A stretch of DNA of 64,000 bases from Escherichia coli (GCF_024298765.1 NZ_CP101211.1); one strand, 5' to 3'. Numbered from the stretch's first letter, positions 784 to 64,000 are shown. Notes: a model not told the origin generated them from the letters alone. A program made the numbers and translations.

Positions 784-3700
784 GTGAAACTTAGAAAAAC
801 AATCACCTCAGCGATTATTGCATCAATGGTTGCCAATACTATGAGTTGGGCTTTTTATGTCACACTCATAAACATGGTAATGACACCACGTGTTTACGCT
901 GCTGACGCTATATTTGACCAGCTCGAAAATAATTTTAACCTTGCAAATCCTAACGCAAATCGCAATGCAACCACCAGTGCTCAGGACATTGTGGAGAAAT
1001 ACAAGAACGCGGATTCAGGCGAGAATGTCAGTGGGAAGATCACCGAGAAATACGTGGGTAAAGCCGAATCCGCTAATCTTAATCTCGGGAAGTATGGGGC
1101 AGGGAACTCTAATGAAAGTGTCATGAAAAATGCCGCATCCGATGGAAAGTCTATTGGTAGCGCCGTACAACTGCCGAGTATGTCTGGAGGGACAATCAAT
1201 TCAAACTACACCAAGGAAGGGGCAAAGCTGCTCTCTCGTGATGCTAATGGCAACATTGGTATAAGCAGTAATCCCAATACTACTCCTGGAACCAAAACAA
1301 ATACGGGAGAGATTTTCAGCTCAGAGCAAAAGCACAGCGATATAAAGTTCAACGCCGCAGATCGTTATGGGGATGAGGATGGCTTTGTTAACGATATAAA
1401 GAATCGGAAAAGCCAGTTATTTGATGCTCAAAGTTATGATGGCGTTGCCTACCGCACCCTCGTAAATGCTAACAAGGACAACCCGGCATCGTCTGTAAAG
1501 CCTAACGATCCCATGTTTACTGCGGGGAGAAATGAGATAACCAATGCTGTTGCTGGTACTGGAAACTGGCTTCAGAACTGTAATGTTGAGACCTCCAAAA
1601 AAACAGTAACCACACACTATCCTGATTACAAAGAGTTCTACTGTAACTCGCCTAAGCAAGATAACTTCAGCAGCTGCACGATAACTCGTGACTTCTCTGT
1701 TCCTGTATACATTTCAGGCGGAAACGGAGACATGTCGATGTGCGGCGATAATTGTGTGCGTATATGGTTTGGTCGCCGTGATGACAACTACTGGAGTGAC
1801 GGGGTATTTAATAACGAACTGACATTAAAATTCCATCCGGATGCAAAATTGGCCTCAGCAAAGATTGTTAACGCGGAGTGGGATGACCACATGCGGGTAA
1901 CACTTGATGGCACGCAGATTTTTGCTCACATAGATGGTGCATATCGAGAAAGTGACTATCCGGCTCCAAAGGGATCTTGGGAGTTAAAAAAATCGTGGAA
2001 ACTCGACAAAGTATACGATGTAACTGAAAAGGTCAGAAAATCAGTTTATGAAGAACCTGATCGTGAAGTGACAATGGCATCCAGAGTCTGGGTTGGTGGG
2101 GGAGGTGAAGGGTACTTTGAGGTTGAGCTGACGTTTGAAAATATGAAGCTCGAAGATAAGCACGTCCAGGAACCAGCTGGTTGTTACGATGCTGTACAAA
2201 CACCAAATACATTCTGCCGTTTCGATCGGTTTAAAGATATGGATGTTGGCACGAAGCGGCTTCCGGAAAGCGTGCTTTCTATGGCAAAGCCGCTGTATGA
2301 AGGCGATAAAGGCTTTCTTACCTGGAAGACTAACCTTGAAGGCTATTTTTGTGATCCATTGGCTAAAGACAAGATTTGCTCTTATGACGCTAGTGGGAAA
2401 ATTATGAAAGACGCTAATGGAAAGGACCTCTGTTACAACTACGAAGAAATTAAGAGTATGCCTGATGCATGTAGTTCTTATAAAAATGATGCAGCATGTG
2501 TACTCGATAAACAAACATGTGCAGAGGGTTGGTTCGATGAGGGCACTAACAGCTGCTACATGTATGAACAGAAATACACCTGTGACAGAGGTAAGGATGT
2601 AGTTCGTGAGGTTGAATCTTCTACAAATGCCTGTGTTGGCATGATCCCATGTTCTGGAGGAACATGCGAAACTGGGCCAAAGGAAGAGAACAACGATTTT
2701 GGAAAAGTTGCGGCTTATTCAAACATGGTTCAGTACATGCAGGGCGAAGCCAAATGCGAAGACCCTAACGATGCCAATTCCTGTTCTGTCTTTGAAGGAA
2801 AACCTGAATGGTGTGGTCGTTCAGTAGGCTTTGTAAATGGCCTGGCAAAGACGGACTGCTGCGAAGCACCGCAGGGAACCGCAGGAGCACTTGAAGGTAT
2901 CATGCTTGCCGGATCTATGATCAGAAACACTAACTGGACCAGAGTTAATGCTCAGCTAATAAAATGGACCGGCGGTGATACAGGTACATGGGCTTCTATG
3001 TCCAATGCGGTCGGTGAGTGGACTGCATCAGCTGGTAAAACAGTAGGGCAAATGTGGAACAATGTCACGAGCTCCTTAACGAGCGTATATGAAAACGTCG
3101 CTGGTAATCTAAGCAGGGCAGTTGGGTCTTCCGCAACTTCTGGAGGGGCAGGAGGTGCTGGCCAGTTGGCACAGGAAACAATGTCCAGCTTCGGTATAGG
3201 TCAGCTTAAGCAGATGGCAATGAAGAAAGCCTACGAATTGCTACCAGATACAGTTCGAGACTTTGTCTTTAAGAACGTTGCTACTACCGGAGGAGAGGTT
3301 GTCTTCTCGGCTGCGGTTCAAAACTTTATGCTTGCATTAAACGTGATCGGTTGGATTTATACAGCCTATCAGGTCACTAAAATGCTTTTAGAAATGTTGG
3401 TAGCATGCGACCAGAAAGAGATGGAAGCTTCTATTCATAAGAATCAAAAATCCTGTTTTACATTAGATACGGAACGATGCGTCAAATATCTGAATGTTGG
3501 TTTCACAAAGAAATGCGTTAAAAAAGCAACAGACATGTGCTGTTATAATTCCATGTTGTCACGCGTTATTATGCAACAAGCTTATCCGCAATTAGGAATA
3601 GACCCTGTCGCCTCTAATTGCGTGGGGCTATCAATAAAGCAAATACAGCAACTGGATTTCGATAAAATTGATCTGACGGAGTGGATTAATGATGCAGTTC

Positions 3701-3972
3701 AGGTAGGAGAAGTTCCTGATCAATATTCAAAATTCTCCGAAGAATCAATTGTGGAAAACTTACCATTCCAGAATGAGAACTATCAACTTCCATCAGAACG
3801 TACCAAGGAAGCAATGGGCGGTGAAGAAAATATGATAAAGGCCAGACAAGAAAATGCTCAGGCTATAAAAGAGGAAAATGTAGATTGTAGCTATTTACCT
3901 CGACCGGCCATATGTGAGGTAGGTTCAACTACGCTGGATCCGGTTACGGGCAAGCAGTTGCCGAAATATTGA
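784..3972 (+). CDS. trhN: Mating-pair stabilisation protein TraN/TrhN (large IncH-type form)
   Basis: 1062-aa ORF with RBS aaggagaaaa upstream, N-terminal signal-like segment, very Cys-rich central/C-terminal region; sits directly after traU-like gene as in F/IncH transfer operons. Confidence 0.6.
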   Translation: MKLRKTITSAIIASMVANTMSWAFYVTLINMVMTPRVYAADAIFDQLENNFNLANPNANRNATTSAQDIVEKYKNADSGENVSGKITEKYVGKAESANLNLGKYGAGNSNESVMKNAASDGKSIGSAVQLPSMSGGTINSNYTKEGAKLLSRDANGNIGISSNPNTTPGTKTNTGEIFSSEQKHSDIKFNAADRYGDEDGFVNDIKNRKSQLFDAQSYDGVAYRTLVNANKDNPASSVKPNDPMFTAGRNEITNAVAGTGNWLQNCNVETSKKTVTTHYPDYKEFYCNSPKQDNFSSCTITRDFSVPVYISGGNGDMSMCGDNCVRIWFGRRDDNYWSDGVFNNELTLKFHPDAKLASAKIVNAEWDDHMRVTLDGTQIFAHIDGAYRESDYPAPKGSWELKKSWKLDKVYDVTEKVRKSVYEEPDREVTMASRVWVGGGGEGYFEVELTFENMKLEDKHVQEPAGCYDAVQTPNTFCRFDRFKDMDVGTKRLPESVLSMAKPLYEGDKGFLTWKTNLEGYFCDPLAKDKICSYDASGKIMKDANGKDLCYNYEEIKSMPDACSSYKNDAACVLDKQTCAEGWFDEGTNSCYMYEQKYTCDRGKDVVREVESSTNACVGMIPCSGGTCETGPKEENNDFGKVAAYSNMVQYMQGEAKCEDPNDANSCSVFEGKPEWCGRSVGFVNGLAKTDCCEAPQGTAGALEGIMLAGSMIRNTNWTRVNAQLIKWTGGDTGTWASMSNAVGEWTASAGKTVGQMWNNVTSSLTSVYENVAGNLSRAVGSSATSGGAGGAGQLAQETMSSFGIGQLKQMAMKKAYELLPDTVRDFVFKNVATTGGEVVFSAAVQNFMLALNVIGWIYTAYQVTKMLLEMLVACDQKEMEASIHKNQKSCFTLDTERCVKYLNVGFTKKCVKKATDMCCYNSMLSRVIMQQAYPQLGIDPVASNCVGLSIKQIQQLDFDKIDLTEWINDAVQVGEVPDQYSKFSEESIVENLPFQNENYQLPSERTKEAMGGEENMIKARQENAQAIKEENVDCSYLPRPAICEVGSTTLDPVTGKQLPKY

Positions 3973-3976
3973 AGAA

Positions 3977-3998
3977 GGGGCCGTTAGGCCCCTTTTTT
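3977..3998. terminator. Bidirectional intrinsic terminator between convergent trhN and lipoprotein gene
   Basis: GGGGCC-gtta-GGCCCC hairpin followed by TTTTTT. Confidence 0.55.
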
Positions 3999-4000
3999 AA

Positions 4001-4873
4001 TTACTTGGCTTTCAATGTTTTTTCTGGGAAGCCTTTTTTACCGTATTCACCGGTAAAGAGGTAATAATCTTTTCCGTTGATGGAGGCTGCAACACCCCCT
4101 GGAGTTGTTGTATTTGGGCTATCAGAACGGAAAATGATACCCGAAAAATCAGCGCTTGTTTCGTTTCCTTTAAATGGGATGAACACATAACGAATTACAG
4201 CGTAATCACCAGCGGGAAGGTTTAGCTGAGGAATTTCGGTTCCTGTTGCGGGGCGAATCGCCTGAAAGCTGTACATTGAATCTGTAGGGAAAACATCAGC
4301 ATCAGGCTTAGAGGGCAGATCACAGGTACTCCATTTATTGACGACTGCCATATCAATTTTACATGTGGCCAGAGCTGCTTTCTGTTTTTCAGGGTTGTAT
4401 CCAAATGAGGCCTGAGTTGCTTTTGTATGCTCAAAAACATACTTAGCTCCTTCACGTACCAAACTTTCATCATTGTAAGGCAATTTTTTTGGATTGGGGA
4501 CGAACACTAGGTATTGATTGACCTGGATGTATTCGGCGTCAGAAGAACTGTACAAAGAGCCGAGGCTCATGATCCCAAAACCTTTTAGACCGCCTGTTAC
4601 GTAGCCCATCGAACTATTGATGAGATACTTAGAAAGAAAGTTGTCGGCATCCCCTCCAGGAGTAACCTCTTGCTCCTTAAAATTAACGTCGAAACCAGCA
4701 AACGAATAGGCATTCTTGGCGACAGAATCATTTGCTTTAGCATGCCAGTACTGGCCGTGACTGTACGCATTCAGAGCGGTGCCTGGCGTAGTGCCGGTGT
4801 CACCGGCACAACCCGATAGGGAAAAACCAATGACGACAGAAGAGACCAGAGATACTAAACGTAAAAGTTTCAT
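4001..4873 (-). CDS. Putative lipoprotein, unknown function
   Basis: 290-aa ORF; N-terminus MKLLRLVSLVSSVVIGFSLSGCAG has signal peptide plus lipobox (LSGC). Confidence 0.5.
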   Translation of the reverse strand: MKLLRLVSLVSSVVIGFSLSGCAGDTGTTPGTALNAYSHGQYWHAKANDSVAKNAYSFAGFDVNFKEQEVTPGGDADNFLSKYLINSSMGYVTGGLKGFGIMSLGSLYSSSDAEYIQVNQYLVFVPNPKKLPYNDESLVREGAKYVFEHTKATQASFGYNPEKQKAALATCKIDMAVVNKWSTCDLPSKPDADVFPTDSMYSFQAIRPATGTEIPQLNLPAGDYAVIRYVFIPFKGNETSADFSGIIFRSDSPNTTTPGGVAASINGKDYYLFTGEYGKKGFPEKTLKAK

Positions 4874-5052
4874 TTAAAGCCCTTTTTGTAATGTCTTTTG
4901 GAGATGGAACCATTATTCCATAGTCACGCGTTTCACAAACAACCTGATTGCATAAAAAAGGAAAAAAAGTGATTTCCAGTAGAACCAGCAGTACACAAGA
5001 AAAGCGCTTTTATAAAAATGTATAATTATTAAAACGAAGTAATGAGGTTGAA

Positions 5053-6837
5053 ATGGGTAAGCCAACAGAAGAGCAAAGACCTGTTATCGAGAATGCTAGC
5101 GCAAACAATATGGTGATAGCAGCGCCTGGATCAGGCAAATCATTCACCATGATAGAAGCGGTTATATCGATTCTCAAAAAGTATCCATATGCAAGAATCG
5201 GGATGGTGACCTTTACTCGCGCTGCAACAAACGCACTTGCAGCAAAGTTACAAAAGCGATTGAGCAAGAAGGATCTTGACCGGGTGCTGGTGGATACTTT
5301 TCACGGACTCGTTAAGAAGCAACTGGACATGATTCGCTGGCCGGGAAAGATGTTGATAGGGCCAGCACAGAGATCTGTCATTCACCGGGCTTTGAAAGAA
5401 TCCGGTGTAACGATGAAGTTTGCTGAAGCTGAATTCGTTATTGATGCTATCGGCAGAGAAATGGATACGGATGTGATTTCAGTTCGGCATAACAGACAAC
5501 AGATCCATTTATTTAATACCTATCAGGCGTTATGCCAGAAAGACCATGTGGCGGACCTCAATGCTCTTTCAAAATTTGTTGTCGGTCAAATGCATTCGGG
5601 AAAAATGCGCACGTTAGATTTGACACATTTGATAGTAGACGAAGTTCAGGATACTGACTCTATACAATTCTCATGGATAGCATTGCATACAAGAGCTGGA
5701 GTCTATACGAGTATAGTTGGAGACGATGATCAGGCCATCTACTCCTTCAGATCCTCAGGAGGAGTCAAAATATTTCAACAGTTTGAAAAACACTTCAGAC
5801 CTAACATATTTTACTTAAACACATGCTTTAGGTGTGAACCTGAAATTTTAGAGGTGGCCGGAGCACTGATAGGAAAGAATGTTTACCGTTATGCCAAAGA
5901 GTTACGCTCGGCAAAAAAGGGAGGAGGAAAGGTCACTTTTCGTTCATATGTAGATATGGAGGAACAGATACAGGGTATTTTAAGCCTTATAAATCAGGAT
6001 CCACATGGATGGGCAATTCTAAGCCGCAATAATGCTCACTTGGATGAGCTAGAAAGTTTGATCGAACAGCCAGTAATTCGTTACGGAGGTAAATCATTCT
6101 GGGATGAAAAAGAAACAAGCGATGTGTTAAGCCTTATGGCCTTTTTCCGACAATCAAATGATCCTCGCTTAATGAAGAGAGTATTGGCATTGTTTGGAGA
6201 ACAGGAATCAGTTTTGGATGAAGTGGCATTGAGTATGAGAGGAAGAAAAGTTACTTTTGGCGACCTTGCCATCCCGGAGGACAGTTCTCTCGAAACAAAA
6301 ACATTACATTCAAACTTCGTGCGCTTTACCCAGGAAAGTACTGATAAAGTTGAGATAGCAAAACGTTTCGCCAACCTTACGAAATGGATGGAATCGTCGT
6401 CAATCAAGATGAGGAGTAATAAAGGTACAGCAACCTTAACAAAAATTGCTTTAGACACTTGTAAACAGTGGGCAGAAAAGACTGGTTGGATGAATATGAT
6501 CAATCGTGCTGCTGCAATGTCATTAGGCCCTAGGAAGAAGGACGAGGAATACAGCCCAGAGAAAGTAGTCCTATCAACCTTGCATGGTTCAAAGGGTCTT
6601 GAGTGGAATAAAGTAATAATAATGAGTTGTAATGCGGATCAGATACCAAGTAAAAGATCAGTTGGGGAGGAGGCAATAGAAGAAGAAAGACGTTTGCTTT
6701 ATGTTGGATTTACGCGTGCAGAAAAGCAACTTTTTGTAATGTGGTATGGTGACCCTTCTTTCTTTTTAAGAGAATGCAGTGAAGAAAAGATAAAAGAAGC
6801 AGCTAATATTCGAATTTCTCCAGTTTATACAGAATAA
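5053..6837 (+). CDS. UvrD/Rep-family (SF1) DNA helicase-like protein
   Basis: 594 aa; Walker A APGSGKS near N-terminus, Walker B-like LIVDEVQD, C-terminal YVGFTRAEKQL motif typical of UvrD-like helicases; RBS gaggt upstream. Confidence 0.7.
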   Translation: MGKPTEEQRPVIENASANNMVIAAPGSGKSFTMIEAVISILKKYPYARIGMVTFTRAATNALAAKLQKRLSKKDLDRVLVDTFHGLVKKQLDMIRWPGKMLIGPAQRSVIHRALKESGVTMKFAEAEFVIDAIGREMDTDVISVRHNRQQIHLFNTYQALCQKDHVADLNALSKFVVGQMHSGKMRTLDLTHLIVDEVQDTDSIQFSWIALHTRAGVYTSIVGDDDQAIYSFRSSGGVKIFQQFEKHFRPNIFYLNTCFRCEPEILEVAGALIGKNVYRYAKELRSAKKGGGKVTFRSYVDMEEQIQGILSLINQDPHGWAILSRNNAHLDELESLIEQPVIRYGGKSFWDEKETSDVLSLMAFFRQSNDPRLMKRVLALFGEQESVLDEVALSMRGRKVTFGDLAIPEDSSLETKTLHSNFVRFTQESTDKVEIAKRFANLTKWMESSSIKMRSNKGTATLTKIALDTCKQWAEKTGWMNMINRAAAMSLGPRKKDEEYSPEKVVLSTLHGSKGLEWNKVIIMSCNADQIPSKRSVGEEAIEEERRLLYVGFTRAEKQLFVMWYGDPSFFLRECSEEKIKEAANIRISPVYTE

Positions 6838-7231
6838 TTCGATATGGGCATTTACTTATGCTTAAAGCTATAGTATAAAAACAATGAGCTTAAATATCAG
6901 CTCCCAAATTTGAGTAACTTTGCTTAAAGTTACTTTCGCGTTAAGCGTTGATTTAGCCGTGAAAAGCGGCCAGCTTAAACAAGCTGTAAGACACCACCGG
7001 CAAAATGTCACCTTTGTCGCTGGTGCACTTCCCATGCCTGAAAAAGGCAATCTGAATTTACCAAACCGTAACTAATTTAGCTCCTCCTGGAGCTATTTTT
7101 GTTGCGTACTTCTAATGCCAGATAGTATAAATCAGGCGGTTCATAGCTTACGGGAGATGAATGACAGGCTTTGCCTTCGTGTTGAAACAAAAAATTGTTT
7201 CTTCCTTCTTACTATATATAGGTGACCCCAA

Positions 7232-20667: not shown

Positions 20668-21443
20668 TCCTTTTGCTTCAGTCCAAAAAAGTAACTTTGG
20701 TTGGCTGAAGACACTTGTCTATGACAATGTAAAATCTGTCGCTGGCATCTTCTTTTAGCTTAACCAAATTTTTATCTAACCCAGTGGGGAAGTCGCTTCC
20801 CTTCTGGGGCACTTCCTCTCAAATTCGAGGTAGTGTATATGACACATTCATCTGATGATAAAAACTATGTCCGAGCAGTTCTGAGTTATCTTGGCATAGA
20901 TTTTGATGAGGCGGATATAGTATTAAGTGTTTGCCATTGTCAAAGTGACGAGCTTTCTTTTACCTGTAATATCAAAGCTATTGAACTCAAGAATGCTGTT
21001 GATTTATATGTCGATAGTATCTCTGAGAATGAAATAGAAGCTTTAAACAGAGAATCTTTAAAATCGCGACTCTGTTACTTTCTTGAGGTGTTTGACGCAG
21101 TCTCTGGTCAGTACCTTGAAATTTCAGGAAAACACTTTGCAACTAGTCGTTTTGAATATGATGATGTTTGTAGTGAAGTTCTTAGCATGTCTAATGATGT
21201 TTCTCAGTCGAAAGGTTATGACCGGGATGAATATAACAGACTGATGCAGGTTGATGGTCAGGTTATGATTGCCCGTTTTGCTTTGCAACAGTTCTGGGAT
21301 ACTCATTTTATTGGACTAATAACATTTGTATCTGAGTCTATAACATCGAGCCTCTATAAAGCTTATGAAACTTTTAGTGATATTAGTTTGGCTTGCTATA
21401 AACTGAGTGAATATTCTTATTCACGCTCGGTAATGACTCCAAC

Positions 21444-21947
21444 TTATTGATAGTGTTTTATGTTCAGATAATGCCCGATGACTTTGTCATGCAGCTCCAC
21501 CGATTTTGAGAACGACAGCGACTTCCGTCCCAGCCGTGCCAGGTGCTGCCTCAGATTCAGGTTATGCCGCTCAATTCGCTGCGTATATCGCTTGCTGATT
21601 ACGTGCAGCTTTCCCTTCAGGCGGGATTCATACAGCGGCCAGCCATCCGTCATCCATATCACCACGTCAAAGGGTGACAGCAGGCTCATAAGACGCCCCA
21701 GCGTCGCCATAGTGCGTTCACCGAATACGTGCGCAACAACCGTCTTCCGGAGCCTGTCATACGCGTAAAACAGCCAGCGCTGGCGCGATTTAGCCCCGAC
21801 GTATCCCCACTGTTCGTCCATTTCCGCGCAGACGATGACGTCACTGCCCGGCTGTATGCGCGAGGTTACCGACTGCGGCCTGAGTTTTTTAAATGGCGGA
21901 AAATCGTGTTGAGGCCAACGCCCATAATGCGGGCGGTTGCCCGGCAT
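21444..21947 (-). CDS. insB: IS1 InsB (transposase made by frameshift fusion with InsA)
   Basis: 167-aa ORF matching IS1 InsB as recalled. Confidence 0.8.
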
Positions 21948-22141
21948 CCAACGCCATTCATGGCCATATCAATGATTTTCTGGTGCGTACCGGGTTGAGA
22001 AGCGGTGTAAGTGAACTGCAGTTGCCATGTTTTACGGCAGTGAGAGCAGAGATAGCGCTGATGTCCGGCGGTGCTTTTGCCGTTACGCACCACCCCGTCA
22101 GTAGCTGAACAGGAGGGACAGCTGATAGAAACAGAAGCCAC
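21866..22141 (-). CDS. insA: IS1 InsA
   Basis: 91-aa [46 protein letters not shown] matches IS1 InsA as recalled. Confidence 0.8.
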
Positions 22142-22611
22142 TGGAGCACCTCAAAAACACCATCATACACTAAATCAGTAAGTTGGCAGCATCACCTTCA
22201 CGCTCTATCAACAGTGAATTGACCCTTAATATTTCACTTAAAGAAAATGACTTCTGTGAGGACCTATCTGATTGCTATATGGAAGATGAGGCTTTACCTT
22301 CTGGTAGGGTAATTTCTCGACGCAACAATGACTCCATAATAAGTATTTATGAGAGCTATGCTGCGGCTTCTTATATTCCGATGATTGCATCTTTGGAAGT
22401 CGTTGATGAATACGGCGAAGTGGTTACTGACCTCTGCCATACCGTTTATGTTTCAGAGTTAACCGGTGGGCGGATTAAAATCCACGACCGTAATGACTTA
22501 GTATCTGAAGTTTTCGATAACCTAAGAAATTTAAATCTTGCAGTTGGAGATTCAGTTTCACAAGCTGCTTGATTCTTTCCCTGATTTTGATTTTTTCTCA
22601 CATACTCTTAT

Positions 22612-53608: not shown

Positions 53609-53980
53609 TTACAGAAATGGAATTAAAAAGTGGTGATGCTGGGCACGTTTCTTTTCCAGCCGGGGTTTAAGCCAGAGCTGAAACTCATTCAACTTCTCAG
53701 CAGCCAAAACCGCTTCAACGGGGAAAACTTTATATTTACCCTGTTGCTGAGGTTCACCCAGCCATCGCCTGATGGCTCCGTCAGTCCATAAACGAGTCTC
53801 TTTTAGCCTAGTTACAGTGACCCATTTTCTGGACCATTCATCAAATTGTCGCTGGCGATCCCGATAACGTTGTTCTTCCTGCTGCCGAAGCCACTCGCGA
53901 TCAACAGCAAATTTTCGGTATCCAACAAAGAGCCCTTGTACTTTGGCCATGTCATATTCCGGTTGCTTAGAGTTACTCAT
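53609..53980 (-). CDS. Hypothetical protein
   Basis: 123-aa ORF. Confidence 0.3.
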   Translation of the reverse strand: MSNSKQPEYDMAKVQGLFVGYRKFAVDREWLRQQEEQRYRDRQRQFDEWSRKWVTVTRLKETRLWTDGAIRRWLGEPQQQGKYKVFPVEAVLAAEKLNEFQLWLKPRLEKKRAQHHHFLIPFL

Positions 53981-58802: not shown

Positions 58803-59228
58803 ATGAATAAAACAGCTTTAATTATGATTCTGGGAATCCTCGGATGTGGTAAAGCATTTGCAGCCACTGAATTACAGCTCCAGCAAAAACGCGTTATGCA
58901 TTTCTGTGCCAATGCCAGCCTTCCGTTGTTGATTGCCGGTACAACTTATGCGAATACGTCTGACAATGGACGACCAGAAAAAGAAAGAGTGGCAATCCTG
59001 AAAAATTCAGTTGCAAGCTCGACAGCTTATAAAATGGCATCTCCCGGAGTTCAGATGGCCATGATGAGCGTGGTGGAAGATATTGCCGATCCGAAAGAAT
59101 TAGCTCTACATCAAAAAGAAGTTAGACGTCTTGGGGCTAGTTATCTTTCCGACAGCGGTGTTTCATGGGCTTCAAAAACTGTTTCACCATTTACAGCCTG
59201 GTGTAACTTTAACCGTTTAGAAAGTTAA
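58803..59228 (+). CDS. Hypothetical secreted protein
   Basis: 141 aa; signal peptide MNKTALIMILGILGCGKAFA. Confidence 0.35.
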   Translation: MNKTALIMILGILGCGKAFAATELQLQQKRVMHFCANASLPLLIAGTTYANTSDNGRPEKERVAILKNSVASSTAYKMASPGVQMAMMSVVEDIADPKELALHQKEVRRLGASYLSDSGVSWASKTVSPFTAWCNFNRLES

Positions 59229-59776
59229 GGCTGGCAAGGCGGTTTCTGTTCAGGAAAGTTACTTTCCGTGCGGGGACCGTAAGATACAGATAAAGCTTAA
59301 GGCCTTTGAATTTTTGGAAAGCATTTGAAAATTTCATTGCGCTTGTCTGATATGAAACAGCCCCTGCATTTCTGCAAAGGCTGAAAGAGTGTGTACGGAC
59401 TTTGGAAGGAGTGATGATATACGCCTGAGCCATCCCATCACCGCAGACAGGGTAATTAACCCTGACTAAAGCTTTCACCTATTCCGTCGCTCGCAAGCGG
59501 CTTTCGCACACTAACGAAGGTATGGCCTTTCGTCGGTGTTAAATTTTTCAAACTTTGCTTACTTTGTCAAGGAAGGTGACCGCAGTAGCAGGCACAACTA
59601 CTTTAATCTGTATGAATAATAAGGTAGAACCGGCCAGTGAATGAATGCTTACCCTGAAATCAGGCGGACAACCTTCAGGAATATTGATAGCAAGACTGAA
59701 TCTCTCGCTGCGGCGATAAACATTTCGCCATAACCCTGAACGAGAGTGGTTCATCCATCATATACAGGAGCGTTAC

Positions 59777-60085
59777 ATGCGCAAATTTAAGTACATAATC
59801 TGTCACCAGTGCGAAGGCCACGGGACCATGGAAAACCCGGCCTTTGAAAATGGATTCACCCAATCAGAAATGGCTGAGTGGGAGCCAGAAATGCGTGAAA
59901 AGTATTTTGCCGGAGCATTTGATGTTCGCTGTAACGTTTGTGCCGGTGACGGTAAGCTCAGCGTACCAAACGTAGCGGCTATGTCTTTTTCAGAACGACG
60001 GGTTCTGGCAGCACGGCGGCGTGATGAGCGTCTTCAGGCTGCTGATGAACGGCTGTCCCGCCAGGAACGAGCAATGGGGTACTGA
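59777..60085 (+). CDS. Hypothetical Zn-ribbon protein
   Basis: 102 aa; CHQCEGHG .. CNVCAGDG paired Cys motifs. Confidence 0.3.
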   Translation: MRKFKYIICHQCEGHGTMENPAFENGFTQSEMAEWEPEMREKYFAGAFDVRCNVCAGDGKLSVPNVAAMSFSERRVLAARRRDERLQAADERLSRQERAMGY

Positions 60086-60100
60086 GGTGCTACAGCAAAG

Positions 60101-60958
60101 ATGAAAATGACGAAGCCAAAACCGGTAAGCCGGATGAAAAGACCGTTTATTAGTGAGCTTGCAGAGCTGGGTTTATCGGGTGAAATTCTTTCAATTCGAA
60201 CTGACGGCATGCAGGGGACGCTCATACCCGATCTTACCGCAGGGGTGAGTGAAGCAGGCCGTGTGAAAACCGGCAACTGGGTAATCTCTGACAAGAGAAC
60301 CTTCGACCATGTCGTTCTGTGTGTTGAAAGACAAGATGAGAACCATGATGTGTACGTAGGTAAATTCATCCAGTTACATGTAGCCGCTAATAAGAGCCTT
60401 AAGATCGTCGAAATGGGCGATGTGAAACTGGTGGCCATAACCAGCTCGATTCCTACCACTTTTAATGGTGGGATAAAGAGATACAAAGGGGTTACGTATG
60501 TGTCACTTTCCCAAACAGCTCAAACCACTATCGACTTCCCGAAGCGTATCTACAAAGAGGGCCAGGAATGTACTTCTGTCACCAGTCCTGACCAAGGTCC
60601 TTTCGCCCGGGATGTTAGGTTGAATTGCTACGGGCGATGTGTTGTCACCGGCGTAAGGTCCCCCTGGCGTACTGAGGCCGCGCACTTAACGCCACGTCAT
60701 GAAGAAGGCATTCCCGACGTAACGAACGGAATTTTACTTCGCCGTGATATCCATACACTGTTCGACAATGACCATTGCGCCATAAACCCTGACACTATGA
60801 AAATTTACTTCAGCCGGGAGGCCCGGGAGTTGGATGATGATCTCCTGAAATGGCATGGGAATGAGATAGAGACGACACGCATGCAGGTTCCGGTTAACAT
60901 CGAAAACCTTCGGATACGATGGCAAAAATTTAAGGCTAAGGATCGTCAGCGTAAATAA
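60101..60958 (+). CDS. HNH endonuclease-domain protein (paralog of the 57734 gene in the HNH region)
   Basis: 285 aa; CVVTG..AAHL..NGILLRRDIHTLFD..INP matches the same HNH-type motif with a different N-terminal domain. Confidence 0.55.
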   Translation: MKMTKPKPVSRMKRPFISELAELGLSGEILSIRTDGMQGTLIPDLTAGVSEAGRVKTGNWVISDKRTFDHVVLCVERQDENHDVYVGKFIQLHVAANKSLKIVEMGDVKLVAITSSIPTTFNGGIKRYKGVTYVSLSQTAQTTIDFPKRIYKEGQECTSVTSPDQGPFARDVRLNCYGRCVVTGVRSPWRTEAAHLTPRHEEGIPDVTNGILLRRDIHTLFDNDHCAINPDTMKIYFSREARELDDDLLKWHGNEIETTRMQVPVNIENLRIRWQKFKAKDRQRK

Positions 60959-61019
60959 AGCCATAAGCTGAACCACGGCGAGGATTAGTCTTGTTCACTA
61001 AATGACAGCGAGAGATTAA

Positions 61020-61223
61020 ATGCAAACCCAAAAAGAAATTACAGTTGGCCAGATCTGGGAAGAAGTGGATCCAAGACTGATCCGGAAAGTGCGGGTTGTT
61101 GAGGTGGCCTCGTTAGAAGGGCCCAAAGGCATCCTTATCGAAAACGTGGAGTCTGGTCGTAAGAACTGGGCGTCGTCATCCCGCTTTAATGGAAAGCGTG
61201 GAGGGTATCGTCTTATTTCCTGA
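61020..61223 (+). CDS. Small hypothetical protein
   Basis: 67-aa ORF. Confidence 0.2.
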   Translation: MQTQKEITVGQIWEEVDPRLIRKVRVVEVASLEGPKGILIENVESGRKNWASSSRFNGKRGGYRLIS

Positions 61224-61309
61224 CGGTTTTGCCAATATGGGAAACTGAAGAGGTTGAAACCATCCCGGTGAGGGAGCATATCTGGTAAAGAAGAGTCTTT
61301 AAAAAGGTT

Positions 61310-61561
61310 TTACGCGACCTGGGATAATAAACGGGAAAACGATACCCAAAAAAAGAATACAGCGATGATAACGATAAGGAATGGTAAGGGCTTCAATATT
61401 TTGAGAAATGCCCTGGCTTCCTTTGCATCTGCATTTCTAATCAAACTGTCCACATAGGGATCACAGCTCTTAGGTTCTGAATTTTTCATATGTTCTGTAC
61501 CTGAAATTGATTCCGTATGAGAAAAGGCCACCGAAGTGGCCTCTATCAAAACTGGTGGCAA
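61310..61561 (-). CDS. Small hypothetical membrane protein
   Basis: 83 aa; C-terminal hydrophobic helix. Confidence 0.25.
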   Translation of the reverse strand: MPPVLIEATSVAFSHTESISGTEHMKNSEPKSCDPYVDSLIRNADAKEARAFLKILKPLPFLIVIIAVFFFWVSFSRLLSQVA

Positions 61562-61564
61562 AAG

Positions 61565-61848
61565 TTAGATCAGGAAATCATCAAGACTTTTACCGGCTGC
61601 AATTTGTTCTGCCAGAGCTTTGGGGGTACGGCCCTGTCCAGTCCACGTTTTTGTTTCGCCATTTTCATCAGTAAATGAGTATTTGGCCGGGCGTGGTCCA
61701 CGGCTTTTCTTGGTAGCCGTAGATTTGGCCTGGAATGAGCCAAGCAGCTCTTCCGGGTTGATACCATCTTCTTCCATTAACTTACGCAGGGCGTCAAGTT
61801 TCTCCTGACGAGCTTGCAGTTCGGCAGCTTTGGATGATTCTTCCTGAC
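61565..61848 (-). pseudogene. hns: H-NS-family nucleoid protein gene, 5' end truncated by IS26
   Basis: Encodes the H-NS C-terminal DNA-binding region ([33 protein letters not shown]); reading frame runs into the IS26 inverted repeat at 61849, N-terminal domain absent. Confidence 0.7.
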
Positions 61849-62668
61849 GGCACTGTTGCAAATAGTCGGTGGTGATAAACTTATCATCCCCTTTTGCTGA
61901 TGGAGCTGCACATGAACCCATTCAAAGGCCGGCATTTTCAGCGTGACATCATTCTGTGGGCCGTACGCTGGTACTGCAAATACGGCATCAGTTACCGTGA
62001 GCTGCAGGAGATGCTGGCTGAACGCGGAGTGAATGTCGATCACTCCACGATTTACCGCTGGGTTCAGCGTTATGCGCCTGAAATGGAAAAACGGCTGCGC
62101 TGGTACTGGCGTAACCCTTCCGATCTTTGCCCGTGGCACATGGATGAAACCTACGTGAAGGTCAATGGCCGCTGGGCGTATCTGTACCGGGCCGTCGACA
62201 GCCGGGGCCGCACTGTCGATTTTTATCTCTCCTCCCGTCGTAACAGCAAAGCTGCATACCGGTTTCTGGGTAAAATCCTCAACAACGTGAAGAAGTGGCA
62301 GATCCCGCGATTCATCAACACGGATAAAGCGCCCGCCTATGGTCGCGCGCTTGCTCTGCTCAAACGCGAAGGCCGGTGCCCGTCTGACGTTGAACACCGA
62401 CAGATTAAGTACCGGAACAACGTGATTGAATGCGATCATGGCAAACTGAAACGGATAATCGGCGCCACGCTGGGATTTAAATCCATGAAGACGGCTTACG
62501 CCACCATCAAAGGTATTGAGGTGATGCGTGCACTACGCAAAGGCCAGGCCTCAGCATTTTATTATGGTGATCCCCTGGGCGAAATGCGCCTGGTAAGCAG
62601 AGTTTTTGAAATGTAAGGCCTTTGAATAAGACAAAAGGCTGCCTCATCGCTAACTTTGCAACAGTGCC
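61849..62668 (+). mobile_element. IS26 (IS6 family), 820 bp
   Basis: 14-bp terminal inverted repeats GGCACTGTTGCAAA / TTTGCAACAGTGCC at both ends; tnp26 inside. Confidence 0.9.
61912..62616 (+). CDS. tnpA: IS26 transposase Tnp26
   Basis: 234 aa from [21 protein letters not shown], matching IS26 transposase as recalled. Confidence 0.9.
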
Positions 62669-62909
62669 TTTCACCCTCGATGCCAACCACGTCAGGTGGC
62701 AAATTTTCGACATTAACCGCGACGATGCTAAATTTCATGGAGAAGTGCGTGGGTGAAATAGCCGGTCGTCAGTCATAAAGGGCAGGGGAGTACCGTTGGC
62801 CCGGCGTTCGATAGTACCGTCCGGATACTGCCAGATATCGGCGTCCAGGGAGATGTCCTGAAGCGCGGTGTCCGGAATTTCAGGTTTGTGTCTCTACAAA
62901 GACTAACTA

Positions 62910-63725
62910 TCAGAAAAACTCATCGAGCATCAAATGAAACTGCAATTTATTCATATCAGGATTATCAATACCATATTTTTGAAAAAGCCGTTTCTGTAAT
63001 GAAGGAGAAAATTCACCGAGGCAGTTCCATAGGATGGCAAGATCCTGGTATCGGTCTGCGATTCCGACTCGTCCAACATCAATACAACCTATTAATTTCC
63101 CCTCGTCAAAAATAAGGTTATCAAGTGAGAAATCACCATGAGTGACGACTGAATCCGGTGAGAATGGCAAAAGCTTATGCATTTCTTTCCAGACTTGTTC
63201 AACAGGCCAGCCATTACGCTCGTCATCAAAATCACTCGCATCAACCAAACCGTTATTCATTCGTGATTGCGCCTGAGCGAGACGAAATACGCGATCGCTG
63301 TTAAAAGGACAATTACTAACAGGAATCGAATGCAACCGGCGCAGGAACGCTGCCAGCGCATCAACAATATTTTCACCTGAATCAGGATATTCTTCTAATA
63401 CCTGGAATGCTGTTTTCCCGGGGAGCGCAGTGGTGAGTAACCATGCATCATCAGGAGTACGGATAAAATGCTTGATGGTCGGAAGAGGCATAAATGCCGT
63501 CAGCCAGTTTAGTCTGACCATCTCATCTGTAACATCATTGGCAACGCTACCTTTGCCATGTTTCAGAAACAACTCTGGCGCATCGGGCTTCCCATACAAT
63601 CGATAGATTGTCGCACCTGATTGCCCGACATTATCGCGAGCCCATTTATACCCATATAAATCAGCATCCAGGTTGGAATTTAATCGCGGCCTCGAGCAAG
63701 ACGTTTCCCGTTGAATATGGCTCAT
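62910..63725 (-). CDS. aph(3')-I: Aminoglycoside 3'-phosphotransferase APH(3')-I (kanamycin/neomycin resistance)
   Basis: 271 aa MSHIQRETSCSRPRLNS..HGDFSLDNLIFDEGKLIGCIDVGRVGIADRYQDLAILWNCLGEFSP matches APH(3')-Ia-type enzyme as recalled. Confidence 0.9.
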   Translation of the reverse strand: MSHIQRETSCSRPRLNSNLDADLYGYKWARDNVGQSGATIYRLYGKPDAPELFLKHGKGSVANDVTDEMVRLNWLTAFMPLPTIKHFIRTPDDAWLLTTALPGKTAFQVLEEYPDSGENIVDALAAFLRRLHSIPVSNCPFNSDRVFRLAQAQSRMNNGLVDASDFDDERNGWPVEQVWKEMHKLLPFSPDSVVTHGDFSLDNLIFDEGKLIGCIDVGRVGIADRYQDLAILWNCLGEFSPSLQKRLFQKYGIDNPDMNKLQFHLMLDEFF

Positions 63726-63848
63726 AACACCCCTTGTATTACTGTTTATGTAAGCAGACAGTTTTATTGTTCATGATGATATATTTTTATCTTGTGCAAT
63801 GTAACATCAGAGATTTTGAGACACAACGTGGATTTGTTGAATAAATCG

Positions 63849-64000
63849 GGCACTGTTGCAAAGTTAGCGATGAGGCAGCCTTTTGTCTTATTCAAAGGCC
63901 TTACATTTCAAAAACTCTGCTTACCAGGCGCATTTCGCCCAGGGGATCACCATAATAAAATGCTGAGGCCTGGCCTTTGCGTAGTGCACGCATCACCTCA
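63849..64000 (-). mobile_element. Second IS26 copy, inverted relative to the first, running off the window end
   Basis: Starts with GGCACTGTTGCAAA and continues as the reverse complement of the 3' end of the first IS26 copy (62570-62668). Confidence 0.85.

Follow-up and report, generated by a model that had tools for sequence, protein, structure and literature searches.

The IS26-bounded aph(3')-Ia (aphA1) gene at the end of the window (the whole 64,000-nucleotide stretch of Escherichia coli DNA analyzed here) very probably constitutes the left edge of the multi-resistance region carried by an IncHI2 conjugative plasmid. Two copies of IS26 in mutually inverted orientation enclose the gene, and the outer flank of one of them is a truncated hns gene. 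The arrangement is already known, in identical sequence, from dozens of published plasmids, and all of its components come from thoroughly described families.

Plasmid lineage

The 4 kb containing the feature (60000-64000) are 100% identical to dozens of complete plasmids, so the arrangement is no chance resemblance. At least 76 plasmid records carry the order hns'-IS26-aph-IS26, with at least 80% of these 4 kb covered in one piece. The last 25 kb of the window are likewise 100% identical to many conjugative plasmids typed as IncHI2A, MOBH and MPF_F. These plasmids come from E. coli, Salmonella, Enterobacter, Klebsiella, Shigella and E. albertii, recovered from sources such as humans, poultry, cattle, pets, fish and wastewater; pR18.0877_278k (Salmonella Goldcoast) and pG17-1 (Enterobacter hormaechei) are examples. 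Apparent 36-kb matches in two pieces, also returned for the last 25 kb, arise where the search tool joined distant IS26 copies, and represent no rearrangement.

The unique backbone to the left of the first IS26 (59000-61848) matches 991 plasmid records. The backbone belongs to IncHI2, with ter, hipA, an HNH endonuclease gene and hns, all common to R478-type plasmids. Beyond the second IS26, pR18.0877_278k, pG17-1 and pEC21Z137-237K continue with the 3' end of a Tn3-family tnpA gene. This tnpA fragment ends in ...CTTAGCGTACGATTTTTTCCGAATTCTGCGGGCTCCCC, which we take to be the terminal repeat of Tn1721. The resistance region of pG17-1 contains floR, strAB, tet(A), sul3, aadA22, lnu(F), blaCTX-M-55, qnrS1, mph(A) and others.

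Architecture of the aphA1 segment

The features of the segment and its flanks are collected in Table 1.

Table 1. Positions of the features in and around the IS26-bounded aphA1 segment, counted from the first letter of the window.
Feature	Position	Strand	Remarks
hns 3' remnant (codons 41-134 and stop)	61565..61848	-	Cut by IS26 #1
IS26 #1, complete	61849-62668	+	820 bp; IRL 61849-61862, tnp26 61912-62616, IRR 62655-62668
Passenger with aphA1, 1180 bp	62669-63848	-	Klebsiella michiganensis-type aphA1 region and IS903 tip
C45/AAT-family peptidase gene end (last 28 codons and stop)	62669..62756	+	Convergent with aphA1; truncated by IS26 #1
aph(3')-Ia (aphA1) phosphotransferase gene, 271 aa, allele WP_000018321.1	62910-63725	-	Profile and structure matches
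Native aphA1 promoter (predicted)	63798..63826	-	-35 TTGTGT 63826-63821, 17-nt spacer, -10 TACATT 63803-63798
IS903-group tip, 19 bp, GGATTTGTTGAATAAATCG	63830..63848	.	104 bp upstream of the aphA1 start codon; cut by IS26 #2
IS26 #2, first 152 bp (IRR end)	63849-64000	-	Runs past the window edge; probable end 64668, from relatives

The first insertion sequence (IS26 #1) has all the attributes of IS26: a length of 820 bp, a perfect 14-bp terminal inverted repeat at both ends (GGCACTGTTGCAAA) and a single DDE transposase gene, tnp26, encoding 234 aa. In a profile search this tnp26 matches the IS6-family model (E = 2e-82), and the element as a whole is 100% identical to the IS26 copies annotated in R478 and many other plasmids. 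The second copy (IS26 #2) opens with 40 bp that exactly repeat, in reverse complement, the last 40 bases of IS26 #1. The IRR ends of both copies point at the passenger, and the two are therefore mutually inverted.

The remainder of IS26 #2 was followed through related plasmids used as proxies. In pG17-1, whose sequence is that of the window at 61776-64000, IS26 #2 matches IS26 #1 at 100% identity over its whole length; this proxy was rebuilt from stretches of the record together with the window, and is approximate at the assumed window start, where the window mismatched. IS26 #2 is a complete 820-bp element in the four proxies read in detail (pR18.0877_278k, pG17-1, pXJW9B277-HI2-N and pEC21Z137-237K), and the second IS26 is equally complete in two plasmids that carry the segment in flipped orientation. 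Among the top hits to 60000-64000, 30 of 30 have a full-length second tnp26 annotated under the match. Together, these comparisons suggest that IS26 #2 is complete in the source molecule and has the outer flank seen in the relatives. By the same extension, the unit IS26-passenger-IS26 would total 2820 bp.

The original prediction had placed an aph(3')-I gene between a complete IS26 and an oppositely oriented copy running off the window. The terminal repeats, the open reading frame and the reverse-complement IRR end bear out this description, and the start given for it, 61849, is exact. A second element that is only a fragment had been named as a possible refutation; in the relatives this fails, as the second copy measures 820 bp in all those examined.

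The hns junction and the flanks of the IS26 copies

The intact 134-aa hns gene of pIMP-20710 places the break caused by IS26 #1 after codon 40. The protein encoded by the remnant fits the StpA/H-NS models of NCBIfam from model position 39 onward, and contains the Pfam H-NS C-terminal domain together with a partial N-terminal domain. The annotation pipeline runs the remnant on into IS26, giving a fusion ORF of 118 aa (61565-61921). The 5' half of hns was not found across the whole of the proxy pG17-1, nor was any further H-NS gene found on it. Missing from pG17-1 is a 1374-bp piece of backbone, corresponding to pIMP-20710 5351-6724, that holds the hns 5' end and three small ORFs; the backbone of pG17-1 restarts about 40 kb away, inverted, adjoining IS1 and sul3.

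The original prediction had also called for a search for 8-bp target duplications in extended sequence, and this search, carried through the proxies, found no duplication flanking the unit. The 8-bp flanks of IS26 #1 are TTCCTGAC on the outer side, inside hns, and TTTCACCC on the inner side; those of IS26 #2 are ATAAATCG on the inner side and, taken from the proxies, CCGTTCAG on the outer side. The two outer flanks, TTCCTGAC and CCGTTCAG, do not match. Similarly, among the 22 flanks of the 11 IS26 copies in the rebuilt pG17-1, none matches another in direct or inverted orientation. Such a lack of duplication is expected after deletion, inversion or recombination, and is thus no argument against the identity of the elements as IS26. 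Taken together with the missing 1.37 kb of backbone, it shows that IS-mediated deletion, inversion or recombination came after the original insertions. Because the target duplication is lacking and the other half of hns is missing, the feature is better read as the margin of a complex rearranged region than as a discrete transposon inserted in hns.

These flanks also bear on whether a copy of Tn6023 entered hns as a unit and had one flank rearranged later, which we consider unlikely. According to second-hand descriptions, Tn6023 (GU562437) consists of aphA1 with inversely oriented IS26 and lies in an IncHI2 plasmid, pSRC125; "Tn6023-like" units are reported in other plasmids. The size described for Tn6023 is 2.6 kb, against 2820 bp for the unit here. 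As described, Tn6023 is located inside Tn5393, upstream of strAB, whereas the unit here lies between hns and the presumed Tn1721 tnpA fragment and has no duplication. The margin of a rearranged multi-resistance region is the reading that we prefer.

The truncation of hns might itself have consequences, although we regard the following chain as distinctly improbable. IS26 #1 would have removed the only H-NS gene of this very widespread lineage, and the fusion ORF would represent H-NS lacking the first 40 residues of the N-terminal oligomerization domain with the DNA-binding domain kept. If expressed, such a protein might work as a dominant negative, or as an altered nucleoid protein, and change the fitness cost of the plasmid or gene silencing. 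Flipping of aphA1 could then alter transcription into the fusion ORF.

Origin of the passenger

Segments carrying aphA1 have been traced to chromosomes of Klebsiella michiganensis (Moran and Hall PMC12670165; Harmer and Hall PMC12802963). The passenger between the two IS26 copies here reaches 123 bp from the aphA1 start codon on the promoter side, of which 104 bp are native and 19 bp are the tip of an IS903-group element. Against the corresponding segment of PTnaphA1-R478, from R478, the archetype of IncHI2 plasmids, it aligns in two pieces, with bases 188-1139 at 99.2% and bases 1-198 at 98.0% identity; the alignment is split by the catA1 insertion site of R478, across which bases 1-198 align.

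In pNDM33-1 the whole 1180-bp passenger is present without interruption, at 100% identity, inside a longer region. On the promoter side of that region, the 19-bp tip runs on for 126 bp that match an annotated IS903B end at 98-100%, and this IS903 stretch is then cut by a Tn5393-type end adjoining strB. On the other side, an entire ORF of 303 aa follows without a break; it belongs to the C45/AAT peptidase family (Pfam PF03417, E = 7e-36). Consistent with the identity of the tip, another IncHI2 plasmid has a complete IS903B abutting aphA1 at the exact position of the 19-bp tip. By its continuity on both sides, pNDM33-1 preserves a longer precursor region of the passenger.

The order in the precursor is an IS903 remnant, aphA1 and the C45-peptidase gene, ultimately derived from a K. 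michiganensis chromosome. Two separate IS26 events very probably cut the passenger out of this longer aphA1 region. One of the two elements lies 19 bp into the IS903 remnant. The other lies inside the peptidase gene, and its outer flank is now the truncated hns.

The inverted pair could in principle have been made in one step, by intramolecular replicative (copy-in) transposition of IS26 in trans, with inversion of the intervening DNA. Tnp26 is able to invert adjacent DNA by a replicative route (PMC4894685; PMC7986276), and the plasmid also has a large inverted block of backbone. This route predicts an inverted 8-bp duplication, with one copy on the passenger side of one IS26 and the second on the far side of its partner. 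The observed flanks (TTCCTGAC/TTTCACCC against ATAAATCG/CCGTTCAG) contain no reverse-complement match, and none was found among the 11 copies of pG17-1. Further, the passenger is collinear with the pNDM33-1 precursor on both sides, as expected from two independent cuts. A one-step origin is therefore very unlikely, and excision of the passenger by two independent IS26 events is the scheme that we retain.

The aphA1 gene and its expression

The aphA1 product is an aminoglycoside 3'-O-phosphotransferase, and resistance to kanamycin and neomycin is the established function of its family. The assignment of the gene here holds at the level of the allele: the protein scores 643.6 bits against NCBIfam NF051474 (APH(3')-Ia; cut-off 625) over residues 1-271. 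Among solved structures it matches AphA1 4FEU and 4EJ7 (E ~1e-187), and the identical gene is listed at 100% identity by PLSDB/AMRFinder. It differs at five residues from the allele of R478 (K27R, D48N, L101I, A126V and S137C) and at four from the allele found in an IS903B context. With its ORF intact and its promoter retained, the gene probably confers kanamycin and neomycin resistance here.

The predicted promoter, TTGTGT-[17]-TACATT, is that proposed for TnaphA1-pIE545 (PMC12670165). A consensus scan returned a second candidate, GTTACA-18-TATCAT, at 63805-63776. In PTn4352, PTn6020 and PTn6179, the native -35 element has given way to the upstream IS26 (PMC12802963). An IS26-hybrid promoter of this kind was considered at the junction with IS26 #2 and rejected: TTGCAA followed by a 17-nt spacer leads to AACAAA, a poor -10 element, and the consensus scan did not report the combination. 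As the hybrid -10 is poor and the IS26 is too distant, the native promoter is the likelier driver of aphA1. The gene would then be expressed from its own retained promoter, and not from one of the IS26-hybrid type found in PTn4352 and PTn6020.

Inversion and mobility of the segment

The presence of the opposite isomer in nature was examined with a synthetic query, composed of the hns remnant, IS26, the reverse-complemented passenger and IS26, run against the plasmid collection. Six IncHI2 plasmids contain this flipped isomer in one piece, at 100% coverage and identity. In the two of these six that were read in detail, pPK5074-MCR1 and pMTY18780-1, the neighbors on both sides are as in the plasmids with the orientation of the window. 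The adjoining segment of about 10 kb, from IS26 #2 to the next full and opposite IS26, also has opposite orientations in pXJW9B277-HI2-N and pG17-1.

These six sister plasmids, with the segment flipped between the same outer flanks, support the original proposal that the segment can invert. The isomers may partly reflect choices made in assembly, since short reads cannot orient 1.2 kb between 820-bp inverted repeats. RecA-dependent recombination between the two 820-bp inverted copies would flip the passenger, and such homologous recombination is most simply taken as the route to inversion.

Movement as an IS26 unit is a different matter. In pseudo-compound transposons of IS26, among them PTn4352 and PTn6020, and for the translocatable units that they release, the IS26 copies must be directly oriented; if they are inverted, transposition gets no further than the cointegrate (PMC7986276). 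A second source likewise states that a pseudo-compound transposon needs direct copies (PMC12802963). The reactions of Tnp26 comprise replicative deletion or inversion and a conservative reaction between two existing copies, and translocatable units come from deletion between, or beside, directly oriented copies (PMC4894685).

The copies here are inverted, and the segment is not a pseudo-compound transposon by orientation. The orientation of the pair suggests that it cannot release a translocatable unit of IS26 and aphA1 or complete pseudo-compound transposition. The original prediction had called the segment a classic IS26-mobilized unit that can move as well as invert. Neither the label nor the movement finds support: the copies are inverted, no duplication is present and half of hns is missing.

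The five IS26-bounded aphA1 passengers in Table 1 of PMC12670165 are 4364, 2296, 1254, 1040 and 931 bp long. That the segment is nevertheless a classic pseudo-compound transposon of the Tn4352 or Tn6020 type, moving as one IS26 and aphA1 translocatable unit, is extremely improbable: aphA1 and IS26 are both shared and the named elements are common, but those elements have direct IS26 where the 152 bp present here show an inverted copy, the 1180-bp passenger fits none of the five lengths, the upstream junction is 123 bp away from the ATG and includes an IS903 tip, against 87 bp in R478, and no target duplication is found.

As the inverted pair appears unable to release a unit, aphA1 would be expected to move only within a larger, directly bounded unit or with the whole plasmid. 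Such a larger unit could consist of IS26 #1 together with a downstream copy in the same orientation. Conjugation of the whole plasmid could also spread the gene.

In general terms, inverted pairs of IS26 serve as substrates for recombination that flips DNA, unlike the mobile pseudo-compound transposons formed by direct pairs. As they are not mobile in this sense, spread of aphA1 is predicted to proceed from the plasmid and from larger directly bounded units, not from the small unit. The window belongs to a widely spread multidrug-resistance IncHI2 lineage, whose Salmonella, E. coli, Enterobacter and Klebsiella hosts have come from people, livestock, pets and water. Within it, a kanamycin/neomycin resistance gene on the border of a large, IS26-rich resistance region has a routine practical meaning, and the feature opens no new question.

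Comparison with known systems

The feature itself recurs, identical in sequence and arrangement, in the multi-resistance regions of IncHI2 plasmids with this backbone. In pR18.0877_278k, pG17-1 and pPK5074-MCR1 the backbone is 100% identical, including the hns::IS26 junction, and sister plasmids differ only in the orientation of the passenger, an IS21 insertion and content deeper in the resistance region.

Among named elements, PTn4352, PTn6020, PTn6179 and PTnaphA1-R478 share the aphA1 family and IS26 with the unit described here. PTnaphA1-R478 also resides on an IncHI2 plasmid, and the passenger here is 98-99% identical to the R478 segment. In all four, however, the IS26 copies are direct rather than inverted, and the length of the passenger and both junctions differ. 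The unit here also keeps the native promoter and the 19-bp IS903 tip, in contrast to the IS26 hybrid promoter of aphA1 pseudo-compound transposons, and has no target duplication.

Tn903 and Tn602 resemble the unit on the promoter side: as here, 104 bp separate the aphA1 start codon from an upstream IS903-group terminal repeat, and the native promoter region is present. In contrast to those transposons, the unit retains only 19 bp of the IS903-group element and is bounded by IS26, and the downstream sequence is the K. michiganensis C45-peptidase context, not sequence of the Tn903 type.

Tn6023, located in Tn5393e of pSRC125, also resembles the arrangement: by the second-hand descriptions, inverse IS26, an aphA1 passenger and an IncHI2 host are features of both. 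The same descriptions set the two apart, with Tn6023 being 2.6 kb long and inside Tn5393, and the unit here 2.82 kb and between hns and the tnpA fragment attributed to Tn1721. "Tn6023-like" is the fairest label for the unit.

Truncation of the plasmid hns gene

The plasmid hns gene is interrupted after codon 40 by the complete IS26 copy at 61849-62668, leaving an annotated fusion ORF whose initial 24 codons lie within the insertion sequence. A second H-NS gene was not found on pG17-1, a proxy plasmid rebuilt from record stretches and the window, and therefore the widespread IncHI2 lineage to which the window belongs apparently has no intact H-NS encoded on the plasmid.

Features of the hns and aphA1 region
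Feature	Position	Strand	Product	Source
hns'-IS26 fusion ORF	61565-61921	-	118 aa, WP_065311124.1	annotation-pipeline call
aph(3')-Ia	62910-63725

Also absent from the proxy is 1374 bp of ancestral IncHI2 backbone, comprising the hns 5' end and three small ORFs, which corresponds to positions 5351-6724 of pIMP-20710, a sister plasmid with an intact hns. Past this gap the backbone returns inverted, as aligned to pIMP-20710 over at least 1.1 kb; there it adjoins IS1 and sul3 and divides two resistance regions.

Within positions 5066-6521 of pQnrB4_020042 this truncated hns fusion ORF is also annotated, but there a DUF1158-ramA segment, not aphA1, comes directly after it. This suggests a greater age and a wider distribution for the hns::IS26 junction than for the adjoining aphA1 module.

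Probable origin of the aphA1 passenger

The 1180-bp aphA1 passenger occurs at 100% identity, without flanking IS26, within positions 3177-5290 of pNDM33-1. On one side it runs on into IS903, of which 126 bp remain before a truncating Tn5393-type end adjoining strB; on the opposite side it runs on into a complete C45/AAT peptidase gene. This arrangement looks like a surviving precursor configuration of the passenger in the window. The encoded aph(3')-Ia differs at five residues (27, 48, 101, 126 and 137) from the allele of R478, the archetypal IncHI2 plasmid, and at four from an allele in an IS903B context.

Inversion and insertion in related plasmids

The ~10-kb segment extending from the second IS26 copy to the next full copy in opposite orientation contains an M14 peptidase, an AAA ATPase, ramA, a glutathione synthase and IS4321. 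In pXJW9B277-HI2-N this segment is inverted, as seen by comparing its positions 3032-7001 with pG17-1 102929-106898, which is a second case of flipping between inverted IS26 copies.

Elsewhere, positions 21428-22196 (769 bp) are 100% identical to part of the resistance region of Salmonella Goldcoast pR18.0877_278k. Because the counterpart there overlaps an annotated IS1B, this match probably represents an IS1 copy in the window. The Goldcoast plasmid differs by a ~2.1-kb IS21 insertion, which the window lacks at ~53636-53641.
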